Shown in pieces: positions 5,201 through 23,079 of a DNA stretch of 64,000 nucleotides (its first letter is position 1; every line of letters begins with the position of its first letter). The position numbers and the translations under genes are program-made. The DNA is from Acetatifactor sp. (GTDB taxonomy: Bacteria > Bacillota > Clostridia > Lachnospirales > Lachnospiraceae). The stretch lies in assembly GCA_045538995.1 (NCBI GenBank), contig JAZQEK010000097.1, positions 48,482 to 112,481 of the forward strand, read 5' to 3'. Under the pieces are notes generated by a model. The model saw nothing but the letters and a program-made list of their open reading frames with translations, did not search any database and was not told the DNA's origin.

Positions 5201-5464
5201 ACTTAATAACAGACAACACATATGAGCTTGTTTGTAGGAGTTATATTTTTTTATCAGTCATCCTTAGTTGGATGTCGCTTTATTCATTATCTAAGATTGT
5301 GCCCAAAGAAGCCATTTTAGATATCGTTCTCATTTCTGGGATTATCCAGTTAAATTAGTAAATTTAGAAAAAGAAAAGAAAATTATTGCAAAATGTTGTC
5401 TGTTTTAGAAATTTTAGATATAATTCTTACAGATAGGTTTCATATGGTTCGCAGAAGGAGGCAT

Positions 5465-6424
5465 ATGGAGCAAAAAACAACTTTATCACAAAGCATCGAG
5501 TTGACTGAGCAGAAGTCACAATATGATTCATCCTGTAAGAGGGTTCTTGCAGAAAAAGTAATTCTGGCGTGGATTATGAAGCATACCATGAAGGAGTATA
5601 TGAAGTATGATGTGCGGGAGATTGCTGGAAGGTATATTGTGGGGGAACCTAAAATCGGAGTGACACCGGTACTACCGGATGAAACCAATGCACCTAGAAT
5701 TGTAGGGATTGGTGTAGAGGATACCACATTGAATGAAGGCACCATTACTTACGACATACAGTTTCAGGCAATTGTGCCGGAAACGGAAGAAATGGTACAG
5801 ATGATTATCAACGTGGAAGCCCAAAATGATTTTTACCCGGGGTATCCAATTGTGAAGCGAGGGATTTATTATTGTGCACGTATGATTTCTTCCCAGTATG
5901 GTACGATATTTACGAAGTCTCATTATGAGAGGATTAAGAAGGTATATTCCGTGTGGATCTGTATGAATCCGCCAAAGGAGCGAAGTAATACGATTACAGA
6001 ATATTCCCTAATGGAGCAGAAGCTGTTTGGAAACGTGAAGGAGAACAGGGTACACTATGATTTGATGAGTGTAGTTATGGTCTGTTTGGGTGAAGGAAAT
6101 ACAGATAATGACCTGTTAAGGCTGTTGGATGTATTATTGGCATCGGATAAGAAGGCGGACGAAAAGAAAGAAATACTGGAGAAGGATTTTCAGATTCCTA
6201 TGACAGAGAAGTTAGAAGAAGAGGTGGAGCGAATGTGTAATTTGAGTGAGGGTGTGGAGCAGAGAGGTATACAGCAAGGGCTGGAACAGGGGATACAGCG
6301 GCAAAAGTTGGAAAGTGCAAAAAGTCTGCTGGATATTTTATCGGATGAGGAAATTGCTAAGCGTATCCGATTACCCTTAGAAGAAGTGCAAAAGCTTCGA
6401 GAGGAGAGTACAGTGAATTGTTAA
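5465..6424 (+). CDS. Rpn family recombination-promoting nuclease / putative transposase (PD-(D/E)XK)
   Basis: YDSSCKRVLA, ITYDIQF, INVEAQNDFYPGYPIVKRGIYYCARMISSQ, KKVYSVWIC and a C-terminal MCNLSEGVEQRGIQQG repeat. AAGGAGG RBS precedes ATG 5465. Confidence 0.85.
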   Translation: MEQKTTLSQSIELTEQKSQYDSSCKRVLAEKVILAWIMKHTMKEYMKYDVREIAGRYIVGEPKIGVTPVLPDETNAPRIVGIGVEDTTLNEGTITYDIQFQAIVPETEEMVQMIINVEAQNDFYPGYPIVKRGIYYCARMISSQYGTIFTKSHYERIKKVYSVWICMNPPKERSNTITEYSLMEQKLFGNVKENRVHYDLMSVVMVCLGEGNTDNDLLRLLDVLLASDKKADEKKEILEKDFQIPMTEKLEEEVERMCNLSEGVEQRGIQQGLEQGIQRQKLESAKSLLDILSDEEIAKRIRLPLEEVQKLREESTVNC

Positions 6425-6790: not shown

Positions 6791-7567
6791 TTATCGGGTA
6801 AAGATCTGGCACCAATAGTCAGTTCCCTTGGTATTTTCATAATAGCCTACACCGATAGTAGTGAAATTAGGGTTCATGATATTGGCACGGTGACCAGAGC
6901 TGTTCATCCAAGCATTCATTACCTCTTCGGGAGAACGCTGTCCCCAAGCAATGTTTTCACCTGCACTTCGATAAGAAACATTCTGTTCCTTTAAGGCAGT
7001 AGAAAAAGAGCTGCCGTTAGGTCTGGTATGTGAGAAAAGCTGCTCGCATTCCTTGGCACGAACCTTAGCTGCTGCCTGCACATTAGTATTGATGGTTAGT
7101 GGAGCGAGTCCCTCCTTGGCACGTTCTGCATTTACAAGACGAACAACCTCCCTGATAAAAGCATGTTCGCTGTCCGGAGCTTCTTCGGGTGTACTTTCCT
7201 CAGTGGAACTATTTCCAGGATTGTTGTTCGGGGTGTTGTTGCCGGGCAAATCGGTTTCAGGAATATCAACATCAGGTACGCCTGCCTCAGGAGCGTCAAT
7301 TTCCGGGAGATTGTTATCCGGGACATTCGTCTCCGGTGCATCAGCATCCGGAAGCTCACAGTCCGGCAAAGAGATGTTTGGGAAGCAACCTTCCAGTTTA
7401 TTGAAAATGTCCTGAATATTACAGCCTGAACGATAAGTAACAATAATTCGGTTACCATTTGAAAATATGTGCTTCTTGTTTAAGATAGCTGCTTCTGTGG
7501 TAAGTGCCTGTCCGCCAAGACAGGTCATAGTGAGTGTGGTTACTGCTAATAATGTAAGTTTTTTCAT
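6791..7567 (-). CDS. Secreted CAP/SCP-domain protein (YkwD-like) with Pro-rich linker
   Basis: Signal peptide MKKLTLLAVTT..., xPxxx repeat linker, and a CAP domain (LVNAERAKEGLAPL, FSHTRPNG, AGENIAWGQ, WMNSSGHRANI, WCQIF). AAGGAG RBS precedes 7567. Confidence 0.85.
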   Translation of the reverse strand: MKKLTLLAVTTLTMTCLGGQALTTEAAILNKKHIFSNGNRIIVTYRSGCNIQDIFNKLEGCFPNISLPDCELPDADAPETNVPDNNLPEIDAPEAGVPDVDIPETDLPGNNTPNNNPGNSSTEESTPEEAPDSEHAFIREVVRLVNAERAKEGLAPLTINTNVQAAAKVRAKECEQLFSHTRPNGSSFSTALKEQNVSYRSAGENIAWGQRSPEEVMNAWMNSSGHRANIMNPNFTTIGVGYYENTKGTDYWCQIFTR

Positions 7568-7751
7568 ATTGTTCTTTATTCTCCTTTCGTAAGTATTTCG
7601 CAATAAGTTTAGCCAAATAAATATTGCGAAAATAATACATAAATGTTACAAAATTATTACAAGACAATCATAATACATTTCCCCAAGATTTCAACAAGTA
7701 ATATTTGGAAATTGGTTTCAGTTATATTTTAAAACTTTTTTAAAAAACCTC

Positions 7752-7780
7752 TTGACATATTATCAAAATGATAATATGAT
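7752..7780 (+). promoter_or_regulatory. sigmaA promoter of the NAD-salvage operon
   Basis: TTGACA (7752-7757), 17-bp spacer, TATGAT (7775-7780). Confidence 0.8.
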
Positions 7781-7815
7781 AATCTCAACAAGAGATAATA
7801 TCAAAATGATAATAA
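7757..7815. promoter_or_regulatory. Candidate NrtR operators (21-bp palindromes)
   Basis: Perfect ATATTATCA-AAA-TGATAATAT (7757-7777) between -35 and -10, near-copy ATAATATCA-AAA-TGATAATAA (7795-7815), and weaker ATAATCTCA-ACA-AGAGATAAT (7779-7799). nrtR is in the operon. Confidence 0.75.
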
Positions 7816-7837: not shown

Positions 7838-8338
7838 ATGAAGAAGACTTTAATCGTAGTGGATATGCAGAAGGATTTTATTGATGGTGCATTAGGAACC
7901 AAGGAAGCAGTTGCTATTGTGGAAAATGTAAAGAAGAAAATCGCAGAGTATCAGGCTGCCGGAGAGGAAATCATTTTCACCAGAGATACCCATCAGGCAG
8001 ATTACTTAAGCACCAACGAGGGCAAGCACCTGCCGGTAGAGCACTGCATCGAGGGAACTGAGGGTTGGCAGATTTACGAGGGTTTGGAAGTACCCGGTGC
8101 TATTTATATTAACAAGCCTAATTTCGGTTACATCGGTTGGGCAGACTATCAGCTGGAAGAGGTAGAAATGGTTGGCTTGTGTACCGATATTTGTGTAGTA
8201 TCTAATGCACTGATTTTGAAAGCTACTTATCCGGAAATCAAGGTGACTGTAGACGCAAGCTGCTGTGCAGGGGTTACCCCGGAAAGTCATGAAGCAGCAC
8301 TGACTACCATGAAAATGTGTCAGGTTGAGGTAGTGTAG
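7838..8338 (+). CDS. pncA: Nicotinamidase / isochorismatase-family cysteine hydrolase
   Basis: VVDMQKDF, DTH...HC metal ligands, K, and GLCTDICV catalytic Cys. First gene of the NAD operon. Confidence 0.85.
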   Translation: MKKTLIVVDMQKDFIDGALGTKEAVAIVENVKKKIAEYQAAGEEIIFTRDTHQADYLSTNEGKHLPVEHCIEGTEGWQIYEGLEVPGAIYINKPNFGYIGWADYQLEEVEMVGLCTDICVVSNALILKATYPEIKVTVDASCCAGVTPESHEAALTTMKMCQVEVV

Positions 8339-8367: not shown

Positions 8368-9159
8368 ATGATTAAATTAAATGATAAGCCCATAAATTTG
8401 AACCATTTTCCGGATGGCACCTTGCTCATGAAGGAGCCGGTACCGGAAGTAGAGAAGGTAGTCATTACTTGGTTATTTGAGAATAATGAAGAGCTGGTAG
8501 CATTATATTTTCTGGTAAAGCATTTGCAGGCAAAGGGAATTACAAATATTGAACTGAAGCTTCCTTATATTCCCAATGCCCGTCAGGACAGAGTGAAGGC
8601 ACCGGAAGATGTGTTTACTCTAAAGTATTTTGCACAGATGATAAATGAGTTGAACTTTAGCAAGGTAACGGTGTTAGACCCGCACTCCTATGTGAGTGAG
8701 GCGTTAATTCATCACATCGATATTCAGACCCCGAAGAAATATGTAGAAAAGGTGCTTAACCAAATTGGTGCAGAAAACGTGATGTTATTCTTCCCGGATG
8801 AGGGGGCTATGAAGCGTTATTCCAGTATGTTTGAGCTCCCCTATGCTTTTGGCATGAAGAAGCGAGACTGGACCACGGGGCAGATACAGGGACTGGATGT
8901 GGCAGGCCAGACAGAGTACATCAAAGGAAGTACGGTGCTGATTGTAGACGATATTTGCAGCAAGGGTGGTACGTTCTACTACAGTGCCAAAGCTTTGAAG
9001 GAGCTGGGAGCAGAAAAAGTGTATTTGTATATTTCTCACTGTGAGAACAGTATTTTCGAGGGAGAATTGTTGGAGACTGATTGGATAGAGAAGATTTTCA
9101 CAATCAATAGTATTTTCGCAAAGGAACATGAAAAGGTGGAGGTGTTTGATTATGAATAG
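8368..9159 (+). CDS. prs: Ribose-phosphate pyrophosphokinase-like protein, short atypical form (Prs/Adps-like)
   Basis: FPDG, LPYIPNARQDR, DPHS, PDEGAMKRY, KKRD and VDDICSKGGT. Only 263 aa. Confidence 0.8.
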   Translation: MIKLNDKPINLNHFPDGTLLMKEPVPEVEKVVITWLFENNEELVALYFLVKHLQAKGITNIELKLPYIPNARQDRVKAPEDVFTLKYFAQMINELNFSKVTVLDPHSYVSEALIHHIDIQTPKKYVEKVLNQIGAENVMLFFPDEGAMKRYSSMFELPYAFGMKKRDWTTGQIQGLDVAGQTEYIKGSTVLIVDDICSKGGTFYYSAKALKELGAEKVYLYISHCENSIFEGELLETDWIEKIFTINSIFAKEHEKVEVFDYE

Positions 9160-10627
9160 AATAAATCCTATGTTGTTAATTGACTTTTATAAAGCAGTGC
9201 ATGCGGAAATGCTGCCCAAGGATATTACCAAGTCCGTGTCTTATTTCACTCCGCGTATGAGTCGTGTGGAGCGTTGGGATAAGGTGGTTATGTTTGGTTT
9301 GCAGGGCTTTATTAAGACTTATCTGATTGACTATTTTAATCAGGAGTTTTTCGGTAAGCCTTTTGAAGAAGTGATTGGGGAATACAAGCGTATCATGGAT
9401 GCAGCTTTGGGTGCAGAAGCATATAAAATAGAGAAAATTGAAAAGCTTCACAAGTTAGGCTATTTGCCCATCGAAATCATAGCTTTGCCGGAGGGAGCGC
9501 TGGTGCCTATGCATGTGCCCATGTTCGGTATTACCAATACCCATCCGGAGTTTGCATGGTTACCCCAGTCTTTGGAAAGTTTAATTTCTGCGGAAAGCTG
9601 GCATCCTATGATTGCAGCAACGGTGGGTTATACCTATCGTCAGATTGTAAACGAGTATTATGCAAAGACCTGCGACGATAATGTACCTCGTGCAAGAGCT
9701 TTGGGTGCGTTCGACTTCCGCGGTGAGGAATGTACGGAGTCTGCTATTAAAGCCGGTGCAGGCTGGTGTCTGTCTTTCTTAAATACAGCAACAGTACCCA
9801 CCATTCCCTATTTGGAGCAGATGTATGTCTGTGACTGTACCAAGGAGCCGGTAGCTTTCGGAAGTCCCAGTACAGAGCATAGTGTAATGTGCAGTAATTA
9901 TGCTATGGACGGCGATGAGGTAACCTTATTAAAGCGTCTTTTGACAGAGATTTATCCCAATACCAGCTTCAGTGCAGTGCTGGATTCTTATGATTATTGG
10001 AATGTGATTGACAATGTGCTTCCACAGATTAAAGAGGAAATCATGGCACACAACGGGTGCATGCTGATGCGTGGTGACTCCGGTGAATGTGTTGATGTGG
10101 TGACACAGACAGTGTTCAAGCTTTGGGAGCAGTTCGGCGGCACCGTAAACAGCAAGGGTTACAAGGTACTTGATCCGCATGTAAAAGCTATTTACGGAGA
10201 TTCTATTACCATCCAGAGATGCGAGGAAATTTACCGTATTCTGGAGGAGAATGGTTTTGCCTGCTCTAATGTGGCACTGGGCGTTGGTTCCTTCTCTATG
10301 CAGTGTATTGAGGAAGATGGTATCTTGAAGCCTTTCACCAGAGATACTTTCAGCTCTTGCATCAAGGCAACCTACTGTGAAATCGCAGATAAGCCTTACC
10401 CCATCTTCAAAAATCCCAAGGATGGCGGTTTCAAAAAGTCTCAAAAGGGTTGCTGTGTGGTAGTAAAGGACGCTACCGGAAGCTATACCTTCCAGGATGG
10501 CTTTACCTGGGAAGAGGCATGCGGAGATGAACTGAATGAATTAGTGCCCGTGTTTAAGGATGGTAAATTGCTGGTGGAGCAGAGCTTACAGCAGGTTCGT
10601 GCGCAGCTGCATGAAGGGAAATTTTAG
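9152..10627 (+). CDS. Nicotinate/nicotinamide phosphoribosyltransferase, NAMPT (NadV) fold
   Basis: DFYK, TPR, FDFRG, TEHSV, VLDSYD, RGDSG, YGDSI, TRD and KSQKG match NAMPT-family motifs. ATG 9152 overlaps the prs stop. Confidence 0.85.
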   Translation: MNRINPMLLIDFYKAVHAEMLPKDITKSVSYFTPRMSRVERWDKVVMFGLQGFIKTYLIDYFNQEFFGKPFEEVIGEYKRIMDAALGAEAYKIEKIEKLHKLGYLPIEIIALPEGALVPMHVPMFGITNTHPEFAWLPQSLESLISAESWHPMIAATVGYTYRQIVNEYYAKTCDDNVPRARALGAFDFRGEECTESAIKAGAGWCLSFLNTATVPTIPYLEQMYVCDCTKEPVAFGSPSTEHSVMCSNYAMDGDEVTLLKRLLTEIYPNTSFSAVLDSYDYWNVIDNVLPQIKEEIMAHNGCMLMRGDSGECVDVVTQTVFKLWEQFGGTVNSKGYKVLDPHVKAIYGDSITIQRCEEIYRILEENGFACSNVALGVGSFSMQCIEEDGILKPFTRDTFSSCIKATYCEIADKPYPIFKNPKDGGFKKSQKGCCVVVKDATGSYTFQDGFTWEEACGDELNELVPVFKDGKLLVEQSLQQVRAQLHEGKF

Positions 10628-10668: not shown

Positions 10669-11397
10669 ATGTATGAATTTAACGTAAAAGAAACCACTGC
10701 GAAATGTATACAGTGGATTAGAGATTGGTTTGAAGTAAACGGAGTGGGTTGTAACGCTATCGTGGGTATTTCCGGTGGTAAGGACAGTTCTGTGGTGGCT
10801 GCACTTTGCGTAGAAGCTTTGGGCAAGGATAGGGTTATCGGTGTGCTCATGCCTTGTGGAGAGCAGGCAGATATTGATATGTCTCAGAAATTGGTAAAGC
10901 ACCTAGGCATCAAAAGCTATGAAGTGAATATTGAAAACGCTGTGAATGGATTGCTGGGAGAATTAAAGGATTTCGAAATTTCTAAGCAGACCCGCATCAA
11001 TCTGCCTCCTCGTATTCGTATGGCTACCCTCTATGCGGTGGGTCAGAGCATGAATGGGCGTGTGGCAAATACCTGTAATCTGTCCGAGGACTGGGTAGGT
11101 TATTCTACCAGATATGGTGACAGTGTAGGGGATTTCAGCCCCTTGTCACGATTGACGGTAACGGAGGTAAAGGCCATTGGTAGAGAACTGAATCTGCCGG
11201 ATGATTTAGTAGATAAGGTGCCGAGCGATGGTCTCACCGGAAAGACGGATGAGGATAATCTGGGATTCACTTACGAGATGCTGGACAAATATATCCGTGA
11301 AGGTGTCTGTGAAGATGAAGAGAAGCGGGCTCTGATTGACGACAAGCACAGAAAGAACTTGTTCAAGCTGGAGCTGATGCCTTGCTTTGAGCCGTAA
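10669..11397 (+). CDS. nadE: NH3-dependent NAD+ synthetase
   Basis: GISGGKDSS PP-loop, NLPPRIRMATLY, NTCNLSE, GYSTRYGD and PSDGL...DEDNLG. No glutaminase domain. Confidence 0.9.
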   Translation: MYEFNVKETTAKCIQWIRDWFEVNGVGCNAIVGISGGKDSSVVAALCVEALGKDRVIGVLMPCGEQADIDMSQKLVKHLGIKSYEVNIENAVNGLLGELKDFEISKQTRINLPPRIRMATLYAVGQSMNGRVANTCNLSEDWVGYSTRYGDSVGDFSPLSRLTVTEVKAIGRELNLPDDLVDKVPSDGLTGKTDEDNLGFTYEMLDKYIREGVCEDEEKRALIDDKHRKNLFKLELMPCFEP

Positions 11398-11427: not shown

Positions 11428-12333
11428 ATGAACTTATATAAGATAAGTGTCGAAGAACAGAACTATCTGGCACAGTATGATATTACAAAATTTGAGCGTC
11501 CTTCCCTAGCGACGGATATGGCTATTTTCTCTATTATGGAGGAGGGGGAGCATGAGAATTATCGTAAGCTCCCCAAGAAAGCCTTGAAGCTGTTGTTAAT
11601 CAAGCGTGCCACCTATCCTTTTAAGGATTTGTGGGCACTGCCGGGTGGATTTTGCAGACCGGATGAGGATGTATATGAAACTGCCAAGCGGGAGTTGTAT
11701 GAAGAAACCCATGTGAATGCTGCTTATTTGCAGCTGGCAGGTACTTTTGGAGAAATCGGCAGAGATCCCAGAGGGTGGATTATCTCCAATACCTTTTTGT
11801 CGCTGGTAAATGGAGAGGATTGTAAGCCCAGAGGGGGAACCGATGCCTGGGAGGCTAAGTGGTTTTCTATAGATTTAGTGATTCGCGATAGCCGGAAGAA
11901 TTTGCAGGCAGAATCGGTAGAAATAGTAACAGAATATGAGTTGAAGCTTTGCCATGAGGAAACGGGTGAGTTTTTGTTCGCTATTGTGAAGGAATATAAG
12001 CAGTTCGAGCATTATCATGAGACAGTACGTTATGAAATCTTGGATAGCAAAGGGCTTGCTTTTGACCATGCAAAGATTATTCTGCATACCCTGCTGTTTT
12101 TGCGTAAGAGTGTGGAAAGTGATTGGAAGTTGGCATTTGACCTGATGCCGGATTTGTTTACGCTGACACAGCTGCAGAATGCATTTGAATTAATACTGGA
12201 TCAGAAGCTGTTAACAGCCAATTTCCGCAGAAAAATCAATGATTATGTTATTGAGACAGAGCAAAGTATCGAAGGGTCCGGACATCGCCCGGCGAAGCTG
12301 TTTAAGAGAAATATTGAGGAATTTTATAGGTAA
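11428..12333 (+). CDS. nrtR: NrtR family Nudix-related transcriptional regulator
   Basis: N-terminal Nudix domain (WALPGGF...E...RELYEET, RDPRGW, LAFDHAKI) plus C-terminal winged helix (FTLTQLQ...NFRRKI...GHRPAKLF). Confidence 0.85.
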   Translation: MNLYKISVEEQNYLAQYDITKFERPSLATDMAIFSIMEEGEHENYRKLPKKALKLLLIKRATYPFKDLWALPGGFCRPDEDVYETAKRELYEETHVNAAYLQLAGTFGEIGRDPRGWIISNTFLSLVNGEDCKPRGGTDAWEAKWFSIDLVIRDSRKNLQAESVEIVTEYELKLCHEETGEFLFAIVKEYKQFEHYHETVRYEILDSKGLAFDHAKIILHTLLFLRKSVESDWKLAFDLMPDLFTLTQLQNAFELILDQKLLTANFRRKINDYVIETEQSIEGSGHRPAKLFKRNIEEFYR

Positions 12334-12893
12334 TGAAAGCAGAGAAGAAAGAAATAAGGGCAGTATATACAGCTGACACCATAAGAGTGTATCAGGCATA
12401 CTGCAAAGAAATTGCGGAAGAGGCAGTGCAAAAAGGAACTTTTGGAAGTCGTTTTAAGATGGAAAGAATGACCTGGATTAAGCCATCCTTTCTGTGGATG
12501 ATGTACCGCTGCGGCTGGGGAACGAAGGAAGGACAGGAGCGTATACTGGCTATCGATATGAAGCGAGAGGCTTTTGATTATATTGTTCAAAATGCAGTGG
12601 TATCCTCCTATAAGGAGGAGTTGGGTATCACTCATGCACAGTGGCAGGAGCAGGTAAAAAGCTCTGATATCCGATGCCAATGGGACCCTGAGCGGGATAT
12701 TCACGGAAATCCTTTGGAATACCGTTCCCTGCAACTGGGATTACGCGGAAAGGCAGTGTACTCGTATGTAAATGAGTGGATTGTACATATCGAGGATATT
12801 ACAGACTATGTGACGGATTTGCGTGAGAAGAAAAGTGAGGGCGTGGATATTCTGGATTTGCTGCCTGAAGAGCGAGTGTATGAGGTGAAATAG
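12333..12893 (+). CDS. DUF4291 family protein
   Basis: IRAVY...IRVYQAY, RMTWIKPSFLWMMYRCGWG, QWDPERD and RSLQLGL. TAATG overlap with nrtR. Confidence 0.8.
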   Translation: MKAEKKEIRAVYTADTIRVYQAYCKEIAEEAVQKGTFGSRFKMERMTWIKPSFLWMMYRCGWGTKEGQERILAIDMKREAFDYIVQNAVVSSYKEELGITHAQWQEQVKSSDIRCQWDPERDIHGNPLEYRSLQLGLRGKAVYSYVNEWIVHIEDITDYVTDLREKKSEGVDILDLLPEERVYEVK

Positions 12894-16756: not shown

Positions 16757-16976
16757 GTTTCATATTACAAATTACATACATTGTGGCAATACAATTTCAA
16801 TAGGGAATAAACTTAGGTTTTAAATAAAAATAGGAATATAGAAAAGCAATTGTAAAAAATAGCAAGAAATGATTAGCATTTGACAAGAGTTAGAGAGTAA
16901 AGAAAGAGTTTTTACTTTAAAATATTTTTAGAATAGCAATAACTATAAGCGAAGGCGGATGGAGGATATTATAACA

Positions 16977-18110
16977 ATGGATAAGAAGAGCTATCGCAAT
17001 GTGTTTACGGAAATTGGAATCAGTGCTTCTGAGGTGGAGAAACGTTTGGAAGAGGTGAAGCAGTTTTACTTCTATGGTGGTGAAGATAAGCAGGTTTATT
17101 TTCCGGTAGGAGAGGACATGGCTTATATTATGGATACCGGTAATAATGATGCCAGAACGGAAGGTATGTCCTATGGCATGATGATTTGTGTACAGTTGAA
17201 TATGAAGGAGGAATTCGACCGTTTGTGGAAATGGGCGAAGACCTATATGTGGATGGAAGACGGCTATAACGAAGGTTATTTCGCATGGTCTTGTGCAACA
17301 GATGGTACGAAGAATGCAAATGGACCGGCACCGGATGGAGAAGAATTCTTCGCATTAGCATTGTTCTTTGCTTCTCACCGCTGGGGAGACGGAGAAGGTA
17401 TCTTCGAGTACTCTAAGCAGGCCAGAGATATTTTGAGTGCATGCTTACATAAAGGTCAGAATGGCAGAATAGGCACACCTATGTGGAATTTAGACAATCA
17501 TCAGATATTGTTTGTGCCGGGCATTGATTTCACAGATCCTTCTTACCACTTGCCTCATTTCTATGAGTTGTTTGCGCTGTGGGCAAACGAGGAAGATAGA
17601 GAATTTTGGAAACAGGCAGCAGAGGCCAGCCGTGATTATTTGGCAAAGGCTTGCCATCCTGTGACAGGTTTCAGTGCAGAGTATGCAGAATTTGATGGTA
17701 GTCCCATGAGCAGACCATTACCTTGGACAAAGGATAGACATGACTGGTTCTTTAGCGATTCTTATCGTACGGTAGCCAATATTGGTTTGGATTGTGAATG
17801 GTTTGGCATTGACAAGGGACATTTTGCAGCAGCAAAGAATATTCAGAAGTTCTTAATCGAGGATGCGAGAAAGGGAACTTATCATATTTATGAAGTGGAT
17901 GGCAGGCAGGCCGCAGATGTAGCATTGCATCCGGTAGCAATACCTGCAACGGTAGCACAGTCTGTTTTAGCCGGAGATACCGAGTATAGCAAGGAGTGGG
18001 TAGAAAGTTTCTGGAATATGCCTATGCGTACCGGAAAGTGGAGATATTACGATAACTGTTTGTACTTCTTTGCATTTTTGGCACTGAGCGGTAATTATAA
18101 GATGTGGTAA
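16977..18110 (+). CDS. GH8 reducing-end xylose-releasing exo-oligoxylanase (Rex-like)
   Basis: DARTEGMSYGM, FAWS, APDGEEFFA, TDPSYHLPHFY and SDSYRT. No signal peptide. GGAGG at 16961 favours ATG 16977. Confidence 0.85.
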   Translation: MDKKSYRNVFTEIGISASEVEKRLEEVKQFYFYGGEDKQVYFPVGEDMAYIMDTGNNDARTEGMSYGMMICVQLNMKEEFDRLWKWAKTYMWMEDGYNEGYFAWSCATDGTKNANGPAPDGEEFFALALFFASHRWGDGEGIFEYSKQARDILSACLHKGQNGRIGTPMWNLDNHQILFVPGIDFTDPSYHLPHFYELFALWANEEDREFWKQAAEASRDYLAKACHPVTGFSAEYAEFDGSPMSRPLPWTKDRHDWFFSDSYRTVANIGLDCEWFGIDKGHFAAAKNIQKFLIEDARKGTYHIYEVDGRQAADVALHPVAIPATVAQSVLAGDTEYSKEWVESFWNMPMRTGKWRYYDNCLYFFAFLALSGNYKMW

Positions 18111-18242
18111 GGCTGGATGCCAATCCGGTGAGGAAATCCAAAGGATTTTCGGGCATGGCACGACGGAAGAATAAAGTATGCCCCTATGAGGCGAAGCATA
18201 GTCCGATACAGTATAGTATGACCGAAACGAAAGGAATAAAAG

Positions 18243-19973
18243 ATGAGCACAACAACGCAAGGCGGCCCTAAGGCCCCAAAGGATCCGACGAAGAAGCGTA
18301 AAGGCTTTTATATCATGAGAAATAAGTCTGTGGCCGGTTCTCCGCAGCCGGATGGCAGAGGAGTCCAGTTTTTGTATATGAATGATGGCAGAATGATCAG
18401 CAGTGCCCGTCTGGTAGGCAATATTACAGACGAAAGCATGCTGGATATGCTGAAAACTACAGCGGATTTTCGTAAGCTGGTACATAGTATCGGTGTGACT
18501 GTGGAGATGGACAATCAGGAAGAAATGGTGGACTTTGTCCTGCAGATGTATGGCAAAACAGATGTCTATGGTTCCGGTACCAATCTGCGGATGTCCTTAA
18601 AGGCAGATGGTATGGAGCAGATATTAAATCTGGAGGAATGCCGATGGTCAGAGGATGATAATATTCCGGGACAGATTCGCTTCGAGTTTGCCAAGGCAGA
18701 GTGTCTGGCAACGGTTGCCGTGAAATTTTATCTTCATGATGATTATGATGCACCGGAGGTGGAGGAAGAAGCGGCAGTGGATTTTAGCTCCCCTTATTAT
18801 CAGGAGATGTTGGGAAAATCCTTAATGCAGGTAGGCAATAACGTACGCTTGAAGAGAGCCATGGAAAAGGCACAGAAGGGCGAGGATGTGACTATTGCTT
18901 TTATCGGTGGTTCCATTACCCAGGGTGCCGGTGCGATTCCTATTCATACCCAGTGTTATGCGTATAAGACCTTTGAAGGCTTCTGCCGGCTAATGGGTAA
19001 AACCACTCAGGAGAATATTCATTACGTGAAAGCGGGAGTGGGAGGTACTCCTTCCGAGTTTGGAATGTTACGTTATGAGCGTGATGTTTTACGAGAAGGC
19101 AGTGTGGAGCCGGATATTGTAGTGGTAGAATTCGCTGTGAACGATGAAGGCGATGAAACCAAGGGCGAGTGCTATGATTCTTTGGTGCGTAAGATTTGGA
19201 ATGGTCCCGGTCAGCCGGCAGTGATACTGTTATTTGCAGTATTTGCCAATGACTGGAACTTGCAGGATAGATTGAGCCCGGTAGGCAGAGCGTATGATTT
19301 GCCTATGGTAAGTACCTTGGATACCGTAGTGGAGCAGTTCTATAAGAAGCCCGGCGAGGGTAAGGTAGTAAGCAAGAATCAGTTTTTCTATGATTCTTAC
19401 CATCCCAGCAATATCGGTCATACCATTATGGCAGATGGTTTGTTGCATCTGATGGAATTGGTAATGGAACAGGAAATCGATAAAGAAGAGGTTGACATAA
19501 CAAATATAGTGCCTCCTCTTGGCGGAGAGTTTGAGAAGGTAAAGCTCTTGGATAGAAAGGCGGAATATGCAGGAGCAGTAGTGGATTGCGGTGATTTCTG
19601 CGGAACTGATCAGGAATTGCAGTGTGTAGAGCAGGATTTGAATTTGTTCACTACTCCGGAGATGCCTTATAACTGGATGTATCAGGGAACGCAGGGAACG
19701 GTATCCGGCAAGCCTTTTGCAATGGATATTACTTGTACAGCTCTGTTAATGGTTATAAAGGACTCTGCTTCTAACAGCGTAGGACGTGTGGAGGTATTTG
19801 TAGATGGGGAGAAGGTTCTTTTGGCAGATCCTCATATCAATGGTTGGACCCATTGCAATCCTTTGATTTGCTTCCGTGGCAGGGAACGTAAGAGTTACCA
19901 TGTGGAGGTTCGCATGGCTGCAGGCGACGAGGCGAAGGATTTCACCATCCTGGGCTTCGGTTATGTAGAATAG
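18243..19973 (+). CDS. SGNH/GDSL hydrolase (putative acetylxylan esterase) with extra N- and C-terminal domains
   Basis: AFIGGSITQG (block I), GVGGT (II), VEFAVND (III) and DSYHP (V), in a xylan-locus context. Confidence 0.75.
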   Translation: MSTTTQGGPKAPKDPTKKRKGFYIMRNKSVAGSPQPDGRGVQFLYMNDGRMISSARLVGNITDESMLDMLKTTADFRKLVHSIGVTVEMDNQEEMVDFVLQMYGKTDVYGSGTNLRMSLKADGMEQILNLEECRWSEDDNIPGQIRFEFAKAECLATVAVKFYLHDDYDAPEVEEEAAVDFSSPYYQEMLGKSLMQVGNNVRLKRAMEKAQKGEDVTIAFIGGSITQGAGAIPIHTQCYAYKTFEGFCRLMGKTTQENIHYVKAGVGGTPSEFGMLRYERDVLREGSVEPDIVVVEFAVNDEGDETKGECYDSLVRKIWNGPGQPAVILLFAVFANDWNLQDRLSPVGRAYDLPMVSTLDTVVEQFYKKPGEGKVVSKNQFFYDSYHPSNIGHTIMADGLLHLMELVMEQEIDKEEVDITNIVPPLGGEFEKVKLLDRKAEYAGAVVDCGDFCGTDQELQCVEQDLNLFTTPEMPYNWMYQGTQGTVSGKPFAMDITCTALLMVIKDSASNSVGRVEVFVDGEKVLLADPHINGWTHCNPLICFRGRERKSYHVEVRMAAGDEAKDFTILGFGYVE

Positions 19974-20037
19974 ATATTTCGGTGAGGGAACATCATCCGT
20001 AAATCTTACGGATATTGTGAATTTGGAGGAAGAGAAA

Positions 20038-22914
20038 ATGAATTTGACAGATAAGTCAAAGAAGACAGTGCTTTTGGTAGAGGAATGTGCCTTTGAAGGG
20101 GTAAAGAGAGTTGCTGCCAAGGTGGCTTTGGATGTGGAAAAGGTGACCGGTGTATTGCCGGAGGTGGTAAATACCTTAGAGACACTGGATAAAGAAAATA
20201 CCCAAGTGATTTTTTGTGCTACCATGGGGAATAGCTGCCTGTTAAAGAAGCTGGCTGAGAACGGACAGATAGCAGCTTCTGAAGTAGAAGGTAAGCGTGA
20301 AGTATATATGATACAGTTTGTGGAGCAGTTGGAAGGTTTCGCAGAGGTGCTGGTGATTTGCGGAAGTGATAAGCGTGGTACCATTTATGGTATGTTTGGT
20401 TTGTCAGAATATATTGGTGTATCACCCTTGTGTTATTGGGGAGATGTGGAACCTGTAAAGAAGTCTGTGCTGGTAGTGGGTGCAGATATCGAAACAGTTT
20501 CCAAGGAACCCAGTGTACGCTACAGAGGTTTCTTTATCAACGATGAATGGCCCTGCTTCGGCAACTGGGTGACATCTCATTTTGGTGATTTTAATGCAGA
20601 CGCTTATGAGCATGTGTTTGAGTTTTTGCTTCGTATGAAGGGGAATTATTTGTGGCCGGCTATGTGGAGTGCATCCTTCCCTTTGGATGGACCGGGCAGC
20701 AAAAATGAGGAGCTGGCAGATATCTATGGTGTGGTAATGGGGTACTCTCATCATGAGCCTTGCTTACGTGCCAGTGAGGAATGGGACAAGGTGCGTGGAC
20801 CGGAGACCAAGTATGGCAATGAATGGAACTTCTACACCAATGAGCAGGGACTTTTGAACTATTGGGAGGATGCATTAAAGCGTAGCGGTAAGTATGACAA
20901 TCTGATTACCATCGGTATGCGCGGAGAACGTGATACCTCTATGCTGGGTGAAAATGCAACCGTAGAAGAAAATGTAAATTTGTTAAAGGATATTATTCGT
21001 AAGCAGCGTCAGCTGATTAAGGAAAATGTAAATGAGGATCTGAGTAAGGTACCTCAGCTTCTTGCCTTGTACAAGGAAGTGGAGGCATATTTTTACGGAG
21101 ATGAAAAGATTAAGGGCTTAAAGGACTGGGAAGAGCTGGATGGAGTTATCTGCATGCTCTGTGAGGATAATTTCGGACATTTGAGAACCCTTCCTACCGA
21201 GGATATCCGTAACCGTAAGGGCGGCTTCGGTATGTATTATCACTTTGATTATCATGGCGGTCCGATTTCCTATGAATGGGTGGATTCTACACCTATGGCA
21301 AAGACCTGGGAACAAATGTGTATGGCCTATGAGTATGGGATTCGGGATGCCTGGATAGTGAATGTAGGTGATTTGAAGTTCCATGAGGTGCCTCTGACTT
21401 ATTTTCTGGCACTGGCTTATGATTATGACAAGTGGGGCTATGGAAACAAGAACAGCTACAGAGAGTATACTGCTCAGTGGTCGGCGCAGAATTTCGCAGG
21501 AGCAAGTGCTGAATTGCAGGAGAAAATCGGCAGAGTATTGACCGAGTACATAGACATGAATGCAAAGCGTCGTCCGGAGGCTCTGAATGAGAGCATTTAT
21601 CATCCCTGCCATTACGGAGAAGCGAACCGGATGCTTGCAAAGGCTGAAGAAATCGAAGCCTTATCCACCGAGGTTTATGAGGCTTTAAGCGAGGCGGATA
21701 AGGATGCTTATTACAGCATGATTCACTTCTCTGCTATGGCAAGTGTGAACTTGCTGAAAATGCATTTATATGCAGGAAAAAATGCTTTTTACGCCAAGCA
21801 GGGCAAACCTATCGCTAATCACTATGCTGCATTAGCAAAGGCGTGCATTCAGAAAGACAGAGAGTATTATGCACAGTTTGGTGCCTTTAAGGATGGTAAG
21901 TGGAATGGCATGCAGATGGCACAGCATATCGGTTTTACCAAGTGGAATGAGGATGACTATCGCTATCCGGTGCTGATGAGCGTGGAACCGGCTTATAAGG
22001 CGAGATTGAAAGTAAATCGTAAGGACAGCTTTGAAACAGCAGTGAAAAATTATGGACCACCTATGAGTATCTTGGTGGACGATTTTCTGTATGCAGGTTG
22101 TGAAGAGGTAGTGCTGGAAGTAGCCAATGATGGTGTGGACAGCGTACACTTTACAGTAGAGGTTCAGAATGCGGAGATGAAGCTTCCGGAGTGGTTATGT
22201 GTCAGTGCTATGGAAGGGGATGTGGCAGAGCAGTTGGATTTGGTACTGAGCTGTGACAGAAGGAAGCTGGGTGAAAGCAAGGAACAGGTACGATTGCTTA
22301 TCAAGGATGCAGAAACCTGTGTGGCAGTGGATGTGTGTGCGAAAGCTGTGAATACGGATGGGTTGCCGGAGAAGACCCATTTGCAGAAGAAGGGCGTTAT
22401 TGCCATGAGTGCTGCCAACTACTTCCAAAAGAAGGATACTCCTGAGGGGGCATTTGAAATCCTGGAAGGCTATGGTAAGTATGGTGTAGGAGCCAAGGTA
22501 TTCCCCAGCACGGCAGTGTTTGCTTTGGAAGAGGAGAAACCTATGCTCTCCTATCGCTTACTGATAGAAGAAGCAGGCGAGTATGAGGTAGAGCTGGTGG
22601 TGGCACCTACCAATTCTGTAGTGAATAAGCAGAGTGTGAATGTAGCACTGCAGGTAAATGAGGAACCTGCTGTAGCGGTAACTTTGGTAGCTGCTGATTT
22701 CCGTGCAGGAGAAAGCAGCGATTGGCGTTGGTCACAGGGTGTGCTGAATCAGGAACGCAGAGTAAGTGCGAAAGTAATGTTTCATGAGGGCGTGCAGACA
22801 GTTGGTATCGGTGCCATGGAAGCCGGTACGGTTTTGGAGCGAGTGATCATTTATAAGAGAGGTACCAACAAGAAGCCGGCATATTTGGGACCGGAGGATA
22901 GTGTATTTGTATAA
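20038..22914 (+). CDS. GH115 xylan alpha-1,2-glucuronidase
   Basis: SDKRGTIYG, RGFFINDEWP, LRMKGNYLWPAMW, SHHEPC, GMRGERD, YYHFDYHG and WIVNVGDLK. GGAGG RBS precedes 20038. Confidence 0.85.
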   Translation: MNLTDKSKKTVLLVEECAFEGVKRVAAKVALDVEKVTGVLPEVVNTLETLDKENTQVIFCATMGNSCLLKKLAENGQIAASEVEGKREVYMIQFVEQLEGFAEVLVICGSDKRGTIYGMFGLSEYIGVSPLCYWGDVEPVKKSVLVVGADIETVSKEPSVRYRGFFINDEWPCFGNWVTSHFGDFNADAYEHVFEFLLRMKGNYLWPAMWSASFPLDGPGSKNEELADIYGVVMGYSHHEPCLRASEEWDKVRGPETKYGNEWNFYTNEQGLLNYWEDALKRSGKYDNLITIGMRGERDTSMLGENATVEENVNLLKDIIRKQRQLIKENVNEDLSKVPQLLALYKEVEAYFYGDEKIKGLKDWEELDGVICMLCEDNFGHLRTLPTEDIRNRKGGFGMYYHFDYHGGPISYEWVDSTPMAKTWEQMCMAYEYGIRDAWIVNVGDLKFHEVPLTYFLALAYDYDKWGYGNKNSYREYTAQWSAQNFAGASAELQEKIGRVLTEYIDMNAKRRPEALNESIYHPCHYGEANRMLAKAEEIEALSTEVYEALSEADKDAYYSMIHFSAMASVNLLKMHLYAGKNAFYAKQGKPIANHYAALAKACIQKDREYYAQFGAFKDGKWNGMQMAQHIGFTKWNEDDYRYPVLMSVEPAYKARLKVNRKDSFETAVKNYGPPMSILVDDFLYAGCEEVVLEVANDGVDSVHFTVEVQNAEMKLPEWLCVSAMEGDVAEQLDLVLSCDRRKLGESKEQVRLLIKDAETCVAVDVCAKAVNTDGLPEKTHLQKKGVIAMSAANYFQKKDTPEGAFEILEGYGKYGVGAKVFPSTAVFALEEEKPMLSYRLLIEEAGEYEVELVVAPTNSVVNKQSVNVALQVNEEPAVAVTLVAADFRAGESSDWRWSQGVLNQERRVSAKVMFHEGVQTVGIGAMEAGTVLERVIIYKRGTNKKPAYLGPEDSVFV

Positions 22915-23079
22915 GTTATATCCTAAGGTGATTATGTAGCCTGGCAGAATGGGAAGTAGATGGAAATAGAATAAAAGGAATAGATAGCCCGTGGGAAATG
23001 AGACTGAATAGCGTATGTTTCAAAGTAGCTGCGGGCTATTCTTATGAGAGAGCGATTCAACGGAATGAGGTGTAGAAAA

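Follow-up and report, generated by a model that had tools for sequence, protein, structure and literature searches.

The overlapping Prs-like and NAMPT-like genes described here are read, with modest confidence, as the core of a chromosomal NAD-reconstitution operon, pncA-adps-namat*-nadE-nrtR(-DUF4291), which would rebuild NAD via nicotinate and NaAD. The operon lies in a 64-kb window, the whole stretch of DNA analysed, from Acetatifactor sp. (Lachnospiraceae; contig JAZQEK010000097.1, assembly GCA_045538995.1), and the Prs-like/NAMPT-like pair is in its middle. The first-pass annotation proposed that the pair is a cellular form of the phage NARP1 pathway under the control of an ADP-ribose sensor. 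This core idea holds, because the two proteins are placed in the Adps and Namat clades, and because an NrtR gene and an operator-like palindrome are present. The kinship to Adps and Namat also agrees with the two-gene conversion of nicotinamide to NAD that was proposed with it. However, nicotinate and NaAD are the likely substrate and product, because PncA and NadE flank the pair and the Asp that specifies nicotinamide is absent from the NAMPT-like enzyme. The operon has the following features:

7752-7780, + strand: sigma-70-like promoter (TTGACA, 17-nt spacer, TATGAT), 11/12 consensus matches, 58 nt 5' of the pncA start
7757-7777, no strand: candidate NrtR operator 1, 21-bp palindrome ATATTATCAAAATGATAATAT, a perfect 10+3+10 inverted repeat that overlaps the promoter
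7795-7815, no strand: candidate NrtR operator 2, imperfect copy of the palindrome, ATAATATCAAAATGATAATAA, with one mismatch in the 15-nt core
7838-8338, + strand: pncA, nicotinamidase of the isochorismatase family, 166 aa (PF00857, E 8e-27)
8368-9159, + strand: Adps-like Prs homologue, 263 aa, predicted ADP-ribose diphosphokinase (ADPR + ATP -> ADPR-PP + AMP)
9152-10627, + strand: variant Namat with the NAMPT fold, 491 aa, predicted nicotinate ADP-ribose transferase (NA + ADPR-PP -> NaAD + PPi)
10669-11397, + strand: nadE, NH3-dependent NAD synthetase of the short type, 242 aa (PF02540, E 4e-52; TIGR00552, 171.9 bits)
11428-12333, + strand: nrtR, Nudix-related, predicted ADP-ribose-responsive repressor, 301 aa (PF00293 and PF21906)
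12333-12893, + strand: DUF4291 protein, 186 aa, last gene of the operon, its start codon overlapping the nrtR stop codon (PF14124, E 3e-72)

The open reading frames of the pair extend over positions 8368-9159 (+, 263 aa) and 9128-10627 (+, 499 aa). The start of the NAMPT-like gene is most likely the ATG at 9152, not 9128. A ribosome-binding site, GGTGGAGG, is located ahead of this ATG at 9133-9140, and all database homologues of the protein are called as 491 aa genes. This start shortens the overlap with the stop codon of the short Prs-like gene, noticed in the first-pass annotation, from 32 nt to 8 nt (ATGAATAG). The best solved relative of PncA is the pyrazinamidase/nicotinamidase of Pyrococcus horikoshii (1ILW), with which the DxH...HC metal and catalytic motifs align. 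As previously stated, the operon does not contain an NMN/NaMN adenylyltransferase detectable by Pfam or NCBIfam. Tblastn searches with E. coli NadD and PncB did not identify homologues in the window or in any fetched locus, and an E. coli Prs query matched only the Adps-like genes next to Namat in the same sequences, with no canonical second Prs copy. The DUF4291 gene is part of the cluster only in the window and in L004, a relative with 99% identity. The predicted fold of this family resembles that of ADP-ribosyltransferases, and its gene neighbours include Nudix and Macro (PMC12522546). Among the RNA runs, a single metatranscriptome contains 5% of the words, which is too little to read co-transcription.

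By bit scores and neighbour-joining trees, both proteins group with validated Adps and Namat, not with Prs and NadV. The Prs-like protein falls by sequence in the Adps clade and not among canonical Prs. Its motifs VLDPHSYV and VDDICSKGGT correspond to DPHSDV and DDICDGAAS of ICP1 Adps, which has been validated biochemically and structurally; the counterparts in the Prs of E. coli and B. subtilis are DLHA and DDMIDTGGT or DDIIDTAGT, respectively. The motif variants DPHS and DDICSKGGT quoted in the first-pass annotation are thus present, and DPHS and DDIC are common with ICP1 Adps, as expected if they track the Adps clade. The protein scores 262.6 bits on a profile built from phage Adps only (69 sequences), compared to 111-131 bits for canonical Prs from E. 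coli, B. subtilis, and archaea. It has 110.9 bits on TIGR01251, below the cut-off of 113, and 45-95 bits on the NCBIfam Prs equivalog models, which have cut-offs of 296-536. In blastp, it aligns to FADO Adps with 151 bits (38% identity) and to E. coli Prs with 70. The C-terminal alpha11-alpha12 module of PRPS is missing, and the stretch after the DD motif is 70 residues long (ICP1 Adps, 69; E. coli Prs, 96). The ICP1 Adps residues F18, R87, H121, D161, K185, D212, and D213 are kept, most of which PRPS retains as well. The PP loop DDICSKGGTF is nearest to DDLSSYGGTF of FADO, with DDIC common with ICP1 and a Prs-like GGT. The resemblance of this loop to the ribose-5-P-binding loop of Prs counts against the proposed model, as does the bootstrap of 57/100 for the split between Prs and Adps in a crude neighbour-joining tree.

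The retained GGT would fit an alternative in which the Prs-like protein makes PRPP, using ribose-5-P from Nudix-cleaved ADPR, and the NAMPT-fold enzyme makes NaMN, which is processed by NadD encoded elsewhere and then by NadE. Alternatively, NadE could be an NMN synthetase followed by an NMN adenylyltransferase encoded elsewhere. To our knowledge, NadD is universal; a copy located outside the operon could supply the activity, which counts against the NaAD model. The best PDB matches of NadE are 2E18 and 3FIU; the latter is Francisella NadE, which prefers NaMN, and this resemblance also speaks for the PRPP-based chemistry and against NaAD. Nevertheless, such chemistry appears unlikely. The score of the Prs-like protein on the phage-Adps profile is twice that of canonical Prs and its scores on the Prs models are below their cut-offs, and SpβL1 Adps gave no product from ribose-5-P (Osterman 2024 preprint, bioRxiv 10.1101/2024.02.11.579819).

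The NAMPT-like protein falls, again by sequence, in the Namat clade and not with NadV. It aligns to SpβL1 Namat (9W5X/9W5W) with 390 bits, compared to 173 for Xanthomonas NAMPT and 161 for human NAMPT, and the basal clade member L083, from C. tunisiense, aligns to the same Namat with 605 bits and to NAMPT with 192. In a neighbour-joining tree with Xanthomonas NAMPT as the outgroup, the variant Namats form a monophyletic group (94/100) that branches within the Namat radiation. The motifs DFYK and TPR, reported previously, are present as DFYK and TPRMSR in place of DSYK and ESR of Xanthomonas NAMPT. The catalytic core formed by Asp13, Tyr15, Phe189, Arg192, His245, Arg306, and Asp308 is kept by both the window protein and its clade. 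The protein also matches the NCBIfam model PRK09198, 'nicotinate phosphoribosyltransferase', above its cut-off (435.7 vs 405), and SpβL1 Namat still uses PRPP in vitro (PMC12774641); both observations are in favour of a PRPP donor.

The pocket of the variant Namat differs from that of SpβL1 Namat by the substitutions H187G, G213N, D215A, S239G, and A242S. The specificity Asp (Asp215 in SpβL1, Asp219 in the human enzyme) is Ala in the window protein, which has 'NTAT' in place of 'GTDT', and likewise Ala in all 166 clade loci. Pocket residues of 150 representatives were read by alignment to a profile HMM: position 215 is Ala or Ser in 47 of the 50 non-Asp representatives, and its change co-varies with A242S, G213N/K, the loss of H187, and S239G (50 clusters at 50% identity); the class has gained Ser242 and Asn/Lys213 alongside the loss of Asp215. 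The NAMPT variant D219S is said, from work by Khan and colleagues in 2006, to accept nicotinate. Human Asp219 defines the substrate specificity of NAMPT (PMC7096376). The human Asp219 mutants have the equivalent position likewise changed to a small residue. However, they are laboratory variants of a PRPP-using enzyme, whereas in the window the substitution occurs naturally, is fixed across a large clade, and comes with four other pocket changes. Another position for the specificity Asp, on the 'HDFSMRG' strand (GAFDFRG in the window), was considered and rejected, since in the 9W5X alignment this strand carries Phe189 and Arg192, and Asp215 is in 'GTDT'. The Asp188->Ala substitution of the window protein is variable within the clade (Ala 81, Asp 70).

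The substitutions bear on a second alternative, in which the Namat-like enzyme joins ADPR-PP to nicotinamide and forms NAD as in NARP1, and PncA and NadE belong to a co-regulated Preiss-Handler branch with PncB and NadD encoded elsewhere. The placement of the proteins in the Adps and Namat clades and the intact catalytic core, including His245, are compatible with this arrangement, and other NrtR regulons join several NAD routes in one operon (PMC2330246). It is nonetheless improbable. Asp215 hydrogen-bonds nicotinamide in SpβL1 Namat, the D215A substitution lowers NAD formation 8-fold (PMC12774641), and this residue is the one replaced in every clade member. Furthermore, PncA would destroy the nicotinamide substrate of the enzyme.

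ADPR-PP is probably still the donor of the variant Namat. The selectivity-clamp loop with its stacking residue (Arg, Lys, or Tyr in Namats, here Arg40) is present in the window protein (TPRMSR), as are Phe392 and the TRD motif. Arg40 is found in 160/166 clade loci and Phe392 in 157/166, a stricter conservation than in Asp-class Namats. In SpβL1 Namat, these residues matter for the use of ADPR-PP and not of PRPP, and their retention argues against the PRPP-based chemistry. The selectivity-clamp helix of the window protein reads GSFSMQC-IEEDGILKPF-TRD, with Tyr396 changed to Cys and 9 aa inserted, and it deviates from the published Namat helix signature GS-X-Phi-X-Phi-X-Phi-TRD, which has aromatics at positions 3 and 7. 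Adenine recognition may be altered because of the insertion and the Tyr396->Cys change, a point against the proposed model. Most clade members have an insertion of at least 9 aa in this helix, and the basal members L082 and L083 keep GSYTYQYNTRD.

The pairing is not due to chance: neighbouring Adps-like and Namat-like genes recur in more than 170 loci across three collections (GTDB genomes, IMG/VR, and metagenomes), and their surroundings separate according to residue 215. Among full-flank loci, defined by flanks of at least 3 kb, the non-Asp215 class comprises 107 loci from gut and rumen bacteria and large phages; PncA is present in all 107, NadE in 102, and an Adps-like gene adjoins the Namat-like gene in 106. 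In contrast, neither PncA nor NadE occurs in any of the 68 loci of the Asp/Glu215 class, including the metagenomic bacterial locus L259, which has Adps, an Asp-type Namat, and NrtR. The association between residue and context has a Fisher p of ~7e-34, calculated for the first 134 loci and ignoring kinship. The non-Asp class is essentially one clade, and one event in an ancestor could explain the association, which nonetheless persists at identities as low as ~36%, in different phyla, and in phages. When two Ser215 representatives were used singly to scan IMG/VR, they gave no matches, and an alignment-based metagenome scan identified only one Ser/Ser locus, L181. NadD, PncB, and canonical Prs were not found within 8 kb of the pair in any of ~175 neighbourhoods, and phages carry all four genes without PncB or NadD. 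The distribution of PncA and NadE and the phage modules argue against nicotinamide as the substrate. Macro-domain genes, which 16/107 loci have in the cluster, suggest that ADPR is the input, and this, like the lack of an adenylyltransferase gene in all ~175 neighbourhoods, disfavours a route through PRPP.

Gene order, clade membership, the active-site substitutions, and their association with gene order are direct observations, on which the following NaAD-forming pathway is modelled. We infer its enzymatic steps, the ligand to which NrtR responds, and that the palindromes are operators; the substrate assignments derive from homology, two or three pocket residues, and the gene neighbourhood. 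Cleavage of NAD by sirtuins, ADP-ribosyltransferases, or NADases would lead to the accumulation of ADP-ribose, which would bind NrtR and release it from the two palindromic operators on the promoter. PncA would deamidate nicotinamide to nicotinate, and the Adps-like enzyme would convert ADP-ribose and ATP to ADPR-PP. The variant Namat, with its pocket changes Asp215->Ala, Ala242->Ser, and Gly213->Asn, would join nicotinate and ADPR-PP directly into NaAD, which NadE would amidate to NAD. Prs, PncB, and NadD would be bypassed.

The NrtR gene and the conserved promoter palindrome support the control of the operon by an ADP-ribose sensor, as suggested before. NrtR has both a Nudix-like effector domain (PF00293) and an NrtR winged-helix domain (PF21906), its PDB relatives are 2FML and Shewanella NrtR 3GZ5, and it matches NCBIfam NF050029, 'ADPR responsive transcriptional repressor', with 150 bits, below the cut-off. 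Its Nudix box, as read from the sequence, is nearly intact, which would suit the cleavage of ADPR to ribose-5-P. The palindrome has only three matches in the 64 kb, compared to 0.37 expected, and at least 20 loci of other species have the motif ATATTATCA-N3-TGATAATAT ahead of the first cluster gene, at a distance of 35-100 nt. NrtR operators have the form of 21-bp palindromes, and tandem NrtR sites are known from Shewanella prs-nadV (PMC2330246). The candidate operator is without the GT-N7-AC core usual in most NrtR groups, which counts against its assignment. Position and overlap with the operator are the basis for the promoter assignment, because the count of promoter matches across the region is not above the shuffled expectation.

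The four-gene module without NrtR is also found in large gut and rumen phages, where it may act as NAD-restoring counter-defence. IMG/VR contigs of large phages encode Namat-like proteins 76-84% identical to that of the window in an unchanged module, as might be expected if the operon had arrived recently as phage cargo, or were left over from a prophage, and had no bacterial housekeeping role. The PD-(D/E)XK transposase-like open reading frame upstream of the operon (5393-6424) could be viewed in the same way. Such an origin is very improbable. The operon is flanked by ordinary chromosomal genes (UvrD, EPSP synthase, LysR, EamA, and xylanolytic glycoside hydrolases), and its GC content is not aberrant. 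At least 80 GTDB species share the operon together with the cognate NrtR and operator, which are absent from phage copies; an NrtR gene is present in 44/59 bacterial and 0/13 viral full-flank loci.

The flanks also agree with the earlier description of the pair as cellular, that is chromosomal and not prophage-borne, but NARP1 in cells has been described before. Osterman et al. 2024 (bioRxiv 10.1101/2024.02.11.579819) noted bacterial copies outside prophages and transcription regulated by ADPR, Lan et al. 2026 (PMC12774641) showed activity for the NARP1 of Paenibacillus foliorum, and NrtR-prs-nadV operons have been on record since 2008 (PMC2330246). The window pair has in common with NARP1 of SpβL1, FADO, Bas63, ICP1, and P. 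foliorum the clades of both proteins, the unchanged gene order, often with translational coupling, the catalytic core, the Arg40/Phe392 clamp residues, the truncated Adps C-terminus, and the DPHS/DDIC motifs; ADPR input without an adenylyltransferase would be shared likewise. However, NARP1 keeps Asp215 and its product is NAD, whereas the window clade has the altered pocket, the embedding between PncA and NadE, in most members the longer clamp helix, and, in bacterial copies, NrtR and the operator, and its predicted product is NaAD.

The NrtR-regulated prs-nadV operons of Shewanella oneidensis, Acinetobacter ADP1, Chromobacterium, and Cytophaga (Rodionov et al. 2008) likewise combine a second Prs paralogue and a NAMPT-fold enzyme with an ADP-ribose-responsive NrtR repressor and tandem palindromic operators. 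By their published description they are without PncA and NadE, a layout represented here by L259, and they were read as PRPP synthetase and nicotinamide PRTase, a reading that favours the PRPP-based alternative (PMC2330246). The Preiss-Handler pathway, for example the NrtR-regulated pncA-pncB-nadD-nadE of Clostridium acetobutylicum, shares with the window operon PncA as the first step, NadE as the last, the deamidated logic, and the regulator family. In the window, the Adps-like/Namat-like pair replaces PncB and NadD, and ADP-ribose would supply the ribosyl-AMP part ready-made, in place of its assembly from PRPP and ATP. NARP2 (NadV and an NMN adenylyltransferase) and NARP3 (PnuC and NadR) are likewise phage-borne modules that restore NAD against NAD-depleting defence, but they proceed via NMN, need an adenylyltransferase domain, and are without ADPR, PncA, and NadE (PMC13464706). 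NARP3 was considered as a prior description of the variant and rejected as unrelated.

The placement of the pair inside a PncA...NadE operon, with an altered Namat active site, looks new, and a literature search did not find a PncA/NadE/NaAD/nicotinate variant of NARP1 described. There is an even chance that the operon constitutes a fourth, deamidated route, in which a nicotinate-specific Namat would be a new activity, wired by NrtR as a housekeeping NAD-recycling loop in bacteria, spread over more than 100 bacterial species of gut and rumen, and used by large phages as stand-alone counter-defence. If so, nicotinate + ADPR-PP -> NaAD would be a new reaction in a salvage route that skips PRPP, PncB, and NadD, and it would provide the physiological role of bacterial NARP1-like genes left open by the 2026 Namat paper (PMC12774641). 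It would also bear on the puzzle, dating from 2008, of why one ADP-ribose sensor controls both a second Prs paralogue and a NAMPT-fold enzyme. Lachnospiraceae, Ruminococcus, and Oscillospiraceae commonly carry the operon, which would make it relevant to the niacin and NAD economy of the gut, and from the phage version one would expect a new class of counter-defence, directed at NAD-depleting systems such as Thoeris, DSR, SIR2-HerA, and pAgo. The three-residue signature Asn/Lys213, Ala/Ser215, and Ser242 could serve as an annotation rule for such genes, which are currently labelled 'nicotinate phosphoribosyltransferase' and 'ribose-phosphate pyrophosphokinase'.

The operon consists of six closely packed genes on the forward strand:

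7838-8338 (+), PncA, a nicotinamidase of the isochorismatase family
8368-9159 (+), Prs-like protein of 263 aa
9128 or 9152-10627 (+), NAMPT-fold protein, with 9152 as the likelier start
10669-11397 (+), NadE, an NH3-type NAD synthetase of the short type, 242 aa
11428-12333 (+), NrtR regulator with Nudix domain and NrtR winged helix
12333-12893 (+), DUF4291 protein, encoded by the final operon gene, with a start codon that overlaps the nrtR stop codon

For the NAMPT-like gene, 9152 is the most likely start, because the ribosome-binding site GGTGGAGG precedes that ATG and all database homologues are called at 491 aa; the gene would therefore overlap the Prs-like stop by 8 nt. Ordinary chromosomal genes make up the flanks; they encode a UvrD-like helicase, EPSP synthase, LysR, EamA, and the enzymes of a xylan-degrading glycoside hydrolase cluster. 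The nearest genome is a Lachnospiraceae MAG, Acetatifactor sp., with 99% identity. Directly upstream of the operon are a PD-(D/E)XK_2 transposase-like (Rpn-type) ORF (5393-6424, +) and a gene for a secreted CAP-domain protein with a proline/aspartate-rich repeat linker (6791-7603, -). The glycoside hydrolase run at 16959-24666 (+), with GH8, a GDSL esterase, GH115 alpha-glucuronidase, and GH43 xylosidase, suggests a xylan-utilisation locus. Translation of the DUF4291 gene is coupled to that of nrtR, and among 80 related genomes the gene occurs only in the one that is 99% identical to the window (L004). The DUF4291 family has a predicted ADP-ribosyltransferase-like fold and Nudix, Macro, and Tpt1 neighbours (PMC12522546), and the window protein might make or process ADP-ribose derivatives.

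The first-pass annotation assigned the Prs-like and NAMPT-like proteins to NARP1, the phage NAD-rebuilding pair of Adps (ADPR to ADPR-PP) and Namat (nicotinamide and ADPR-PP to NAD), and every motif it quoted was found in the window proteins. The NAMPT-fold protein scores 390 bits against the Namat of phage SpβL1 (PDB 9W5X/9W5W; PMC12774641), compared with 173 bits against Xanthomonas and 161 bits against human NAMPT. A crude neighbour-joining tree with Xanthomonas NAMPT as the root recovers its clade as monophyletic (94/100) and nests it among the Namats of phages SpβL1, FADO, and ICP1, PDB 9KE8, and a Namat-like protein of the Ounavirinae phage mistaenkt. The Prs-like protein falls slightly under the cut-off of the Prs model TIGR01251 (110.9 bits, cut-off 113) and far under the cut-offs of every Prs equivalog model. 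Its blastp scores are 151 bits with FADO Adps, 108 with ICP1 Adps, and 70-79 with bacterial and archaeal Prs. A profile built only from 69 Adps adjoining Asp/Glu-type Namats on phage contigs gives it 262.6 bits, whereas canonical Prs reach 111-131. The protein shares DPHS and DDIC with ICP1 Adps, and retains Phe18, Arg87, His121, Asp161, Lys185, Asp212, and Asp213; the C-terminal alpha11-12 module is absent. Activity and structure of ICP1 Adps are published, and the absence of this module is a signature of the Adps family (PMC13586617). The Adps-like/Prs split has moderate support in a crude tree (57/100). Bit scores, the Adps-only profile, shared motifs and residues, and the trees thus support membership in Adps/Namat rather than Prs/NadV.

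NrtR-prs-nadV operons have been known since 2008, with the dedicated Prs paralogue left unexplained (PMC2330246); the NARP1 preprint describes non-prophage NARP1 in some bacteria and mentions ADPR-regulated transcription (bioRxiv 10.1101/2024.02.11.579819); and Adps and Namat of Paenibacillus foliorum yield NAD in vitro and protect cells from SPARSA (Lan et al. 2026, PMC12774641). In outline, therefore, a cellular NARP1 controlled by an ADPR sensor is not new. The PncA/NadE gene neighbourhood and the altered active site of the Namat-like enzyme appear to be new, and no paper joining NARP1, Adps, or ADPR-PP to PncA, NadE, NaAD, or nicotinate was found in the literature.

Related loci from GTDB genomes (80, with 49-99% identity) belong to Lachnospiraceae, Ruminococcus, Oscillospiraceae, Dysosmobacter, Clostridium tunisiense, Elusimicrobia, and MAGs labelled Paludibacteraceae or Spirochaetales. 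The order PncA-Adps-Namat-NadE is nearly invariant in them, with NrtR ahead of or behind the module. The four genes also occur, without NrtR, in 14 viral sequences, namely IMG/VR contigs (L084-L096, most of 107-171 kb) and GenBank MT835544. On one contig their neighbours encode an RnlA-like RNA ligase, polynucleotide kinase, thymidylate synthase (ThyA), and DHFR, flanks typical of large lytic phages. Given the chromosomal flanks in the window, the explanation that the operon is inert phage cargo is highly improbable. The IMG/VR carriers are large gut or rumen phage contigs (for example, L086 1-17485), where further neighbours encode a radical-SAM protein, phosphoesterases, and guanylate kinase, and a 120-aa ORF (phrog_23161) separates pncA from adps.

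Gene context by class of residue 215 (SpβL1 Namat numbering, 9W5X), for loci flanked on each side by 3 kb or more, with HMM-based gene calls:

Non-Asp215: 107 loci (59 GTDB, the window, 13 viral, 34 metagenomic, one of them Ser/Ser); PncA in 107, NadE in 102
Asp/Glu215: 68 loci (63 viral, 5 metagenomic); PncA in 0, NadE in 0

The association of residue 215 with context has a Fisher p of ~7e-34 in the first 134 loci, uncorrected for shared ancestry, and the link of PncA/NadE to non-Asp215 stems from a single clade. The 80 IMG/VR loci nearest to FADO Namat nearly all have Adps, yet PncA and NadE are absent within 8 kb in every one.

Asp215 of SpβL1 Namat hydrogen-bonds nicotinamide, and D215A lowers NAD output 8-fold (PMC12774641); its human counterpart, Asp219, defines NAMPT specificity (PMC7096376). 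When mapped onto 9W5X, all enzymes in PncA/NadE clusters have Ala215 and Ser242, except for the Ser/Ser metagenomic locus of the larger set, and all those outside have Asp (or Glu) 215 and Ala242. NAMPT D219S is reportedly able to use nicotinate. A search of 1.84 billion representatives returned 1183 relatives at E <= 1e-30, and the best 150 include 95 Asp/Ala, 30 Ala/Ser, and 17 Ser/Ser at residues 215/242. In the non-Asp class, Gly213 is replaced by Lys/Asn, Ser239 by Gly, and Gly356 by Lys/Arg, and His187 is lost; the side chain of residue 213 would face the same way as that of 215 if this stretch is a β-strand. The basal members from C. tunisiense (L083) and L082 still have the helix of canonical Namats, GSYTYQYNTRD, and reach 605 bits with SpβL1 Namat, but already show Ala215/Ser242, PncA, NadE, and NrtR. 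The pocket change therefore follows gene context, not the helix insertion.

The clamp of SpβL1 Namat (Arg40, Phe392, Tyr396) is required with ADPR-PP and dispensable with PRPP (PMC12774641). The non-Asp class has Arg40 in 160 and Phe392 in 157 of 166 loci, a stricter conservation than in Asp-type Namats. Tyr396 is replaced by Cys/Ala, and the window enzyme departs from the published Namat helix signature. An insertion of at least 9 aa in the clamp helix ends in a conserved Pro-Phe/Tyr immediately before the TRD motif; it may be speculated that this aromatic replaces the missing one. A tblastn search of limited sensitivity, with the E. coli proteins as queries at E <= 1e-3, revealed no NadD, PncB, or canonical Prs close to any locus or in the window. 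Given the conserved Arg40 and Phe392, classical PRPP chemistry, in which the NAMPT-fold enzyme would be specific for nicotinate, is unlikely. That the Adps-like/Namat-like pair works on ADPR and ADPR-PP at all is quite probable.

In the full scheme, PncA would turn nicotinamide into nicotinate, the Adps-like enzyme would turn ADPR into ADPR-PP, the variant Namat would yield NaAD, and NadE would yield NAD; in bacteria, ADPR would derepress the whole operon through NrtR. We consider this scheme somewhat favoured. Its main weaknesses are the single-clade association, the crude trees, the divergent helix of the window enzyme, and the Francisella NadE among the solved relatives of NadE. An amidated NARP1 with co-regulated Preiss-Handler genes, in which the Namat-like enzyme would join ADPR-PP to nicotinamide, is unlikely, as Asp215 is replaced in every PncA/NadE cluster.

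The second-best solved relative of the window NadE (10669-11397) is 3FIU from Francisella tularensis, reportedly a NaMN-preferring NMN synthetase. A 2.45-Mb metagenome contig of bacterial chromosome size (L259 7033-10301) encodes, in this order, Adps, an Asp215/Ala242 Namat with intact clamp, and NrtR, without PncA or NadE at this locus; it represents an amidated bacterial NARP1 under NrtR, and its layout matches the 2008 prs-nadV operons.

The region upstream of pncA contains the following elements:

7752-7780, near-consensus promoter (TTGACA, 17 nt, TATGAT)
7757-7777, perfect 21-bp palindrome ATATTATCAAAATGATAATAT, overlapping the promoter, candidate NrtR operator
7795-7815, second, imperfect copy of the palindrome, candidate NrtR operator

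In at least 20 other species, Elusimicrobia and Spirochaetales MAGs among them, the same palindrome precedes the leading gene of the cluster (pncA or nrtR) by 35-100 nt. NrtR binds operators that are palindromic and 21 bp long, and it is freed from DNA by ADP-ribose (PMC2330246). The window palindrome lacks their common GT-N7-AC core, so that NrtR binding remains inferred. The window NrtR is similar to that of Shewanella (3GZ5) and to E. faecalis 2FML. Its Nudix box is nearly intact (G-x5-E-x7-RE-L-x-EE-x-H-V, with only the final Gly replaced), and the protein might still have ADP-ribose pyrophosphatase activity. A copy of the operator core with two mismatches at 21237-21251, within the GH115 gene, is probably due to chance.

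In 16 of the 107 clusters, bacterial as well as viral, a Macro-domain gene separates the Namat-like gene from nadE (L001 9714-10190; L086 9488-9964; L027, L058, L065, L068, L073, L081, and several of L18x-L23x). Macro domains release or bind ADP-ribose. Such a gene is also present in a few phage NARP1 loci of the Asp type (L102, L107, L112). A distinct phage subgroup in IMG/VR (L121, L123, L135, L137, L139, L145, L147, and relatives) has Glu at 215 and Adps downstream of Namat. Two metagenomic enzymes of the Asp/Ala type (L255 and L258) resemble ordinary NAMPT/NadV: clamp position 40 is Glu, positions 392/396 are Arg/Ser, and Adps is missing from the vicinity. For the clamp residues they provide an internal negative control. 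Many Namat homologue representatives carry large insertions (550-900 aa in total; P0158, P0184, and P0233 have 778-822 aa, and P0191 has 1114 aa). In three homologues, about 280 aa are inserted exactly within the GS...TRD clamp motif. A weak LAGLIDADG match in P0191 points to inteins or insertions of homing endonucleases at the active site.
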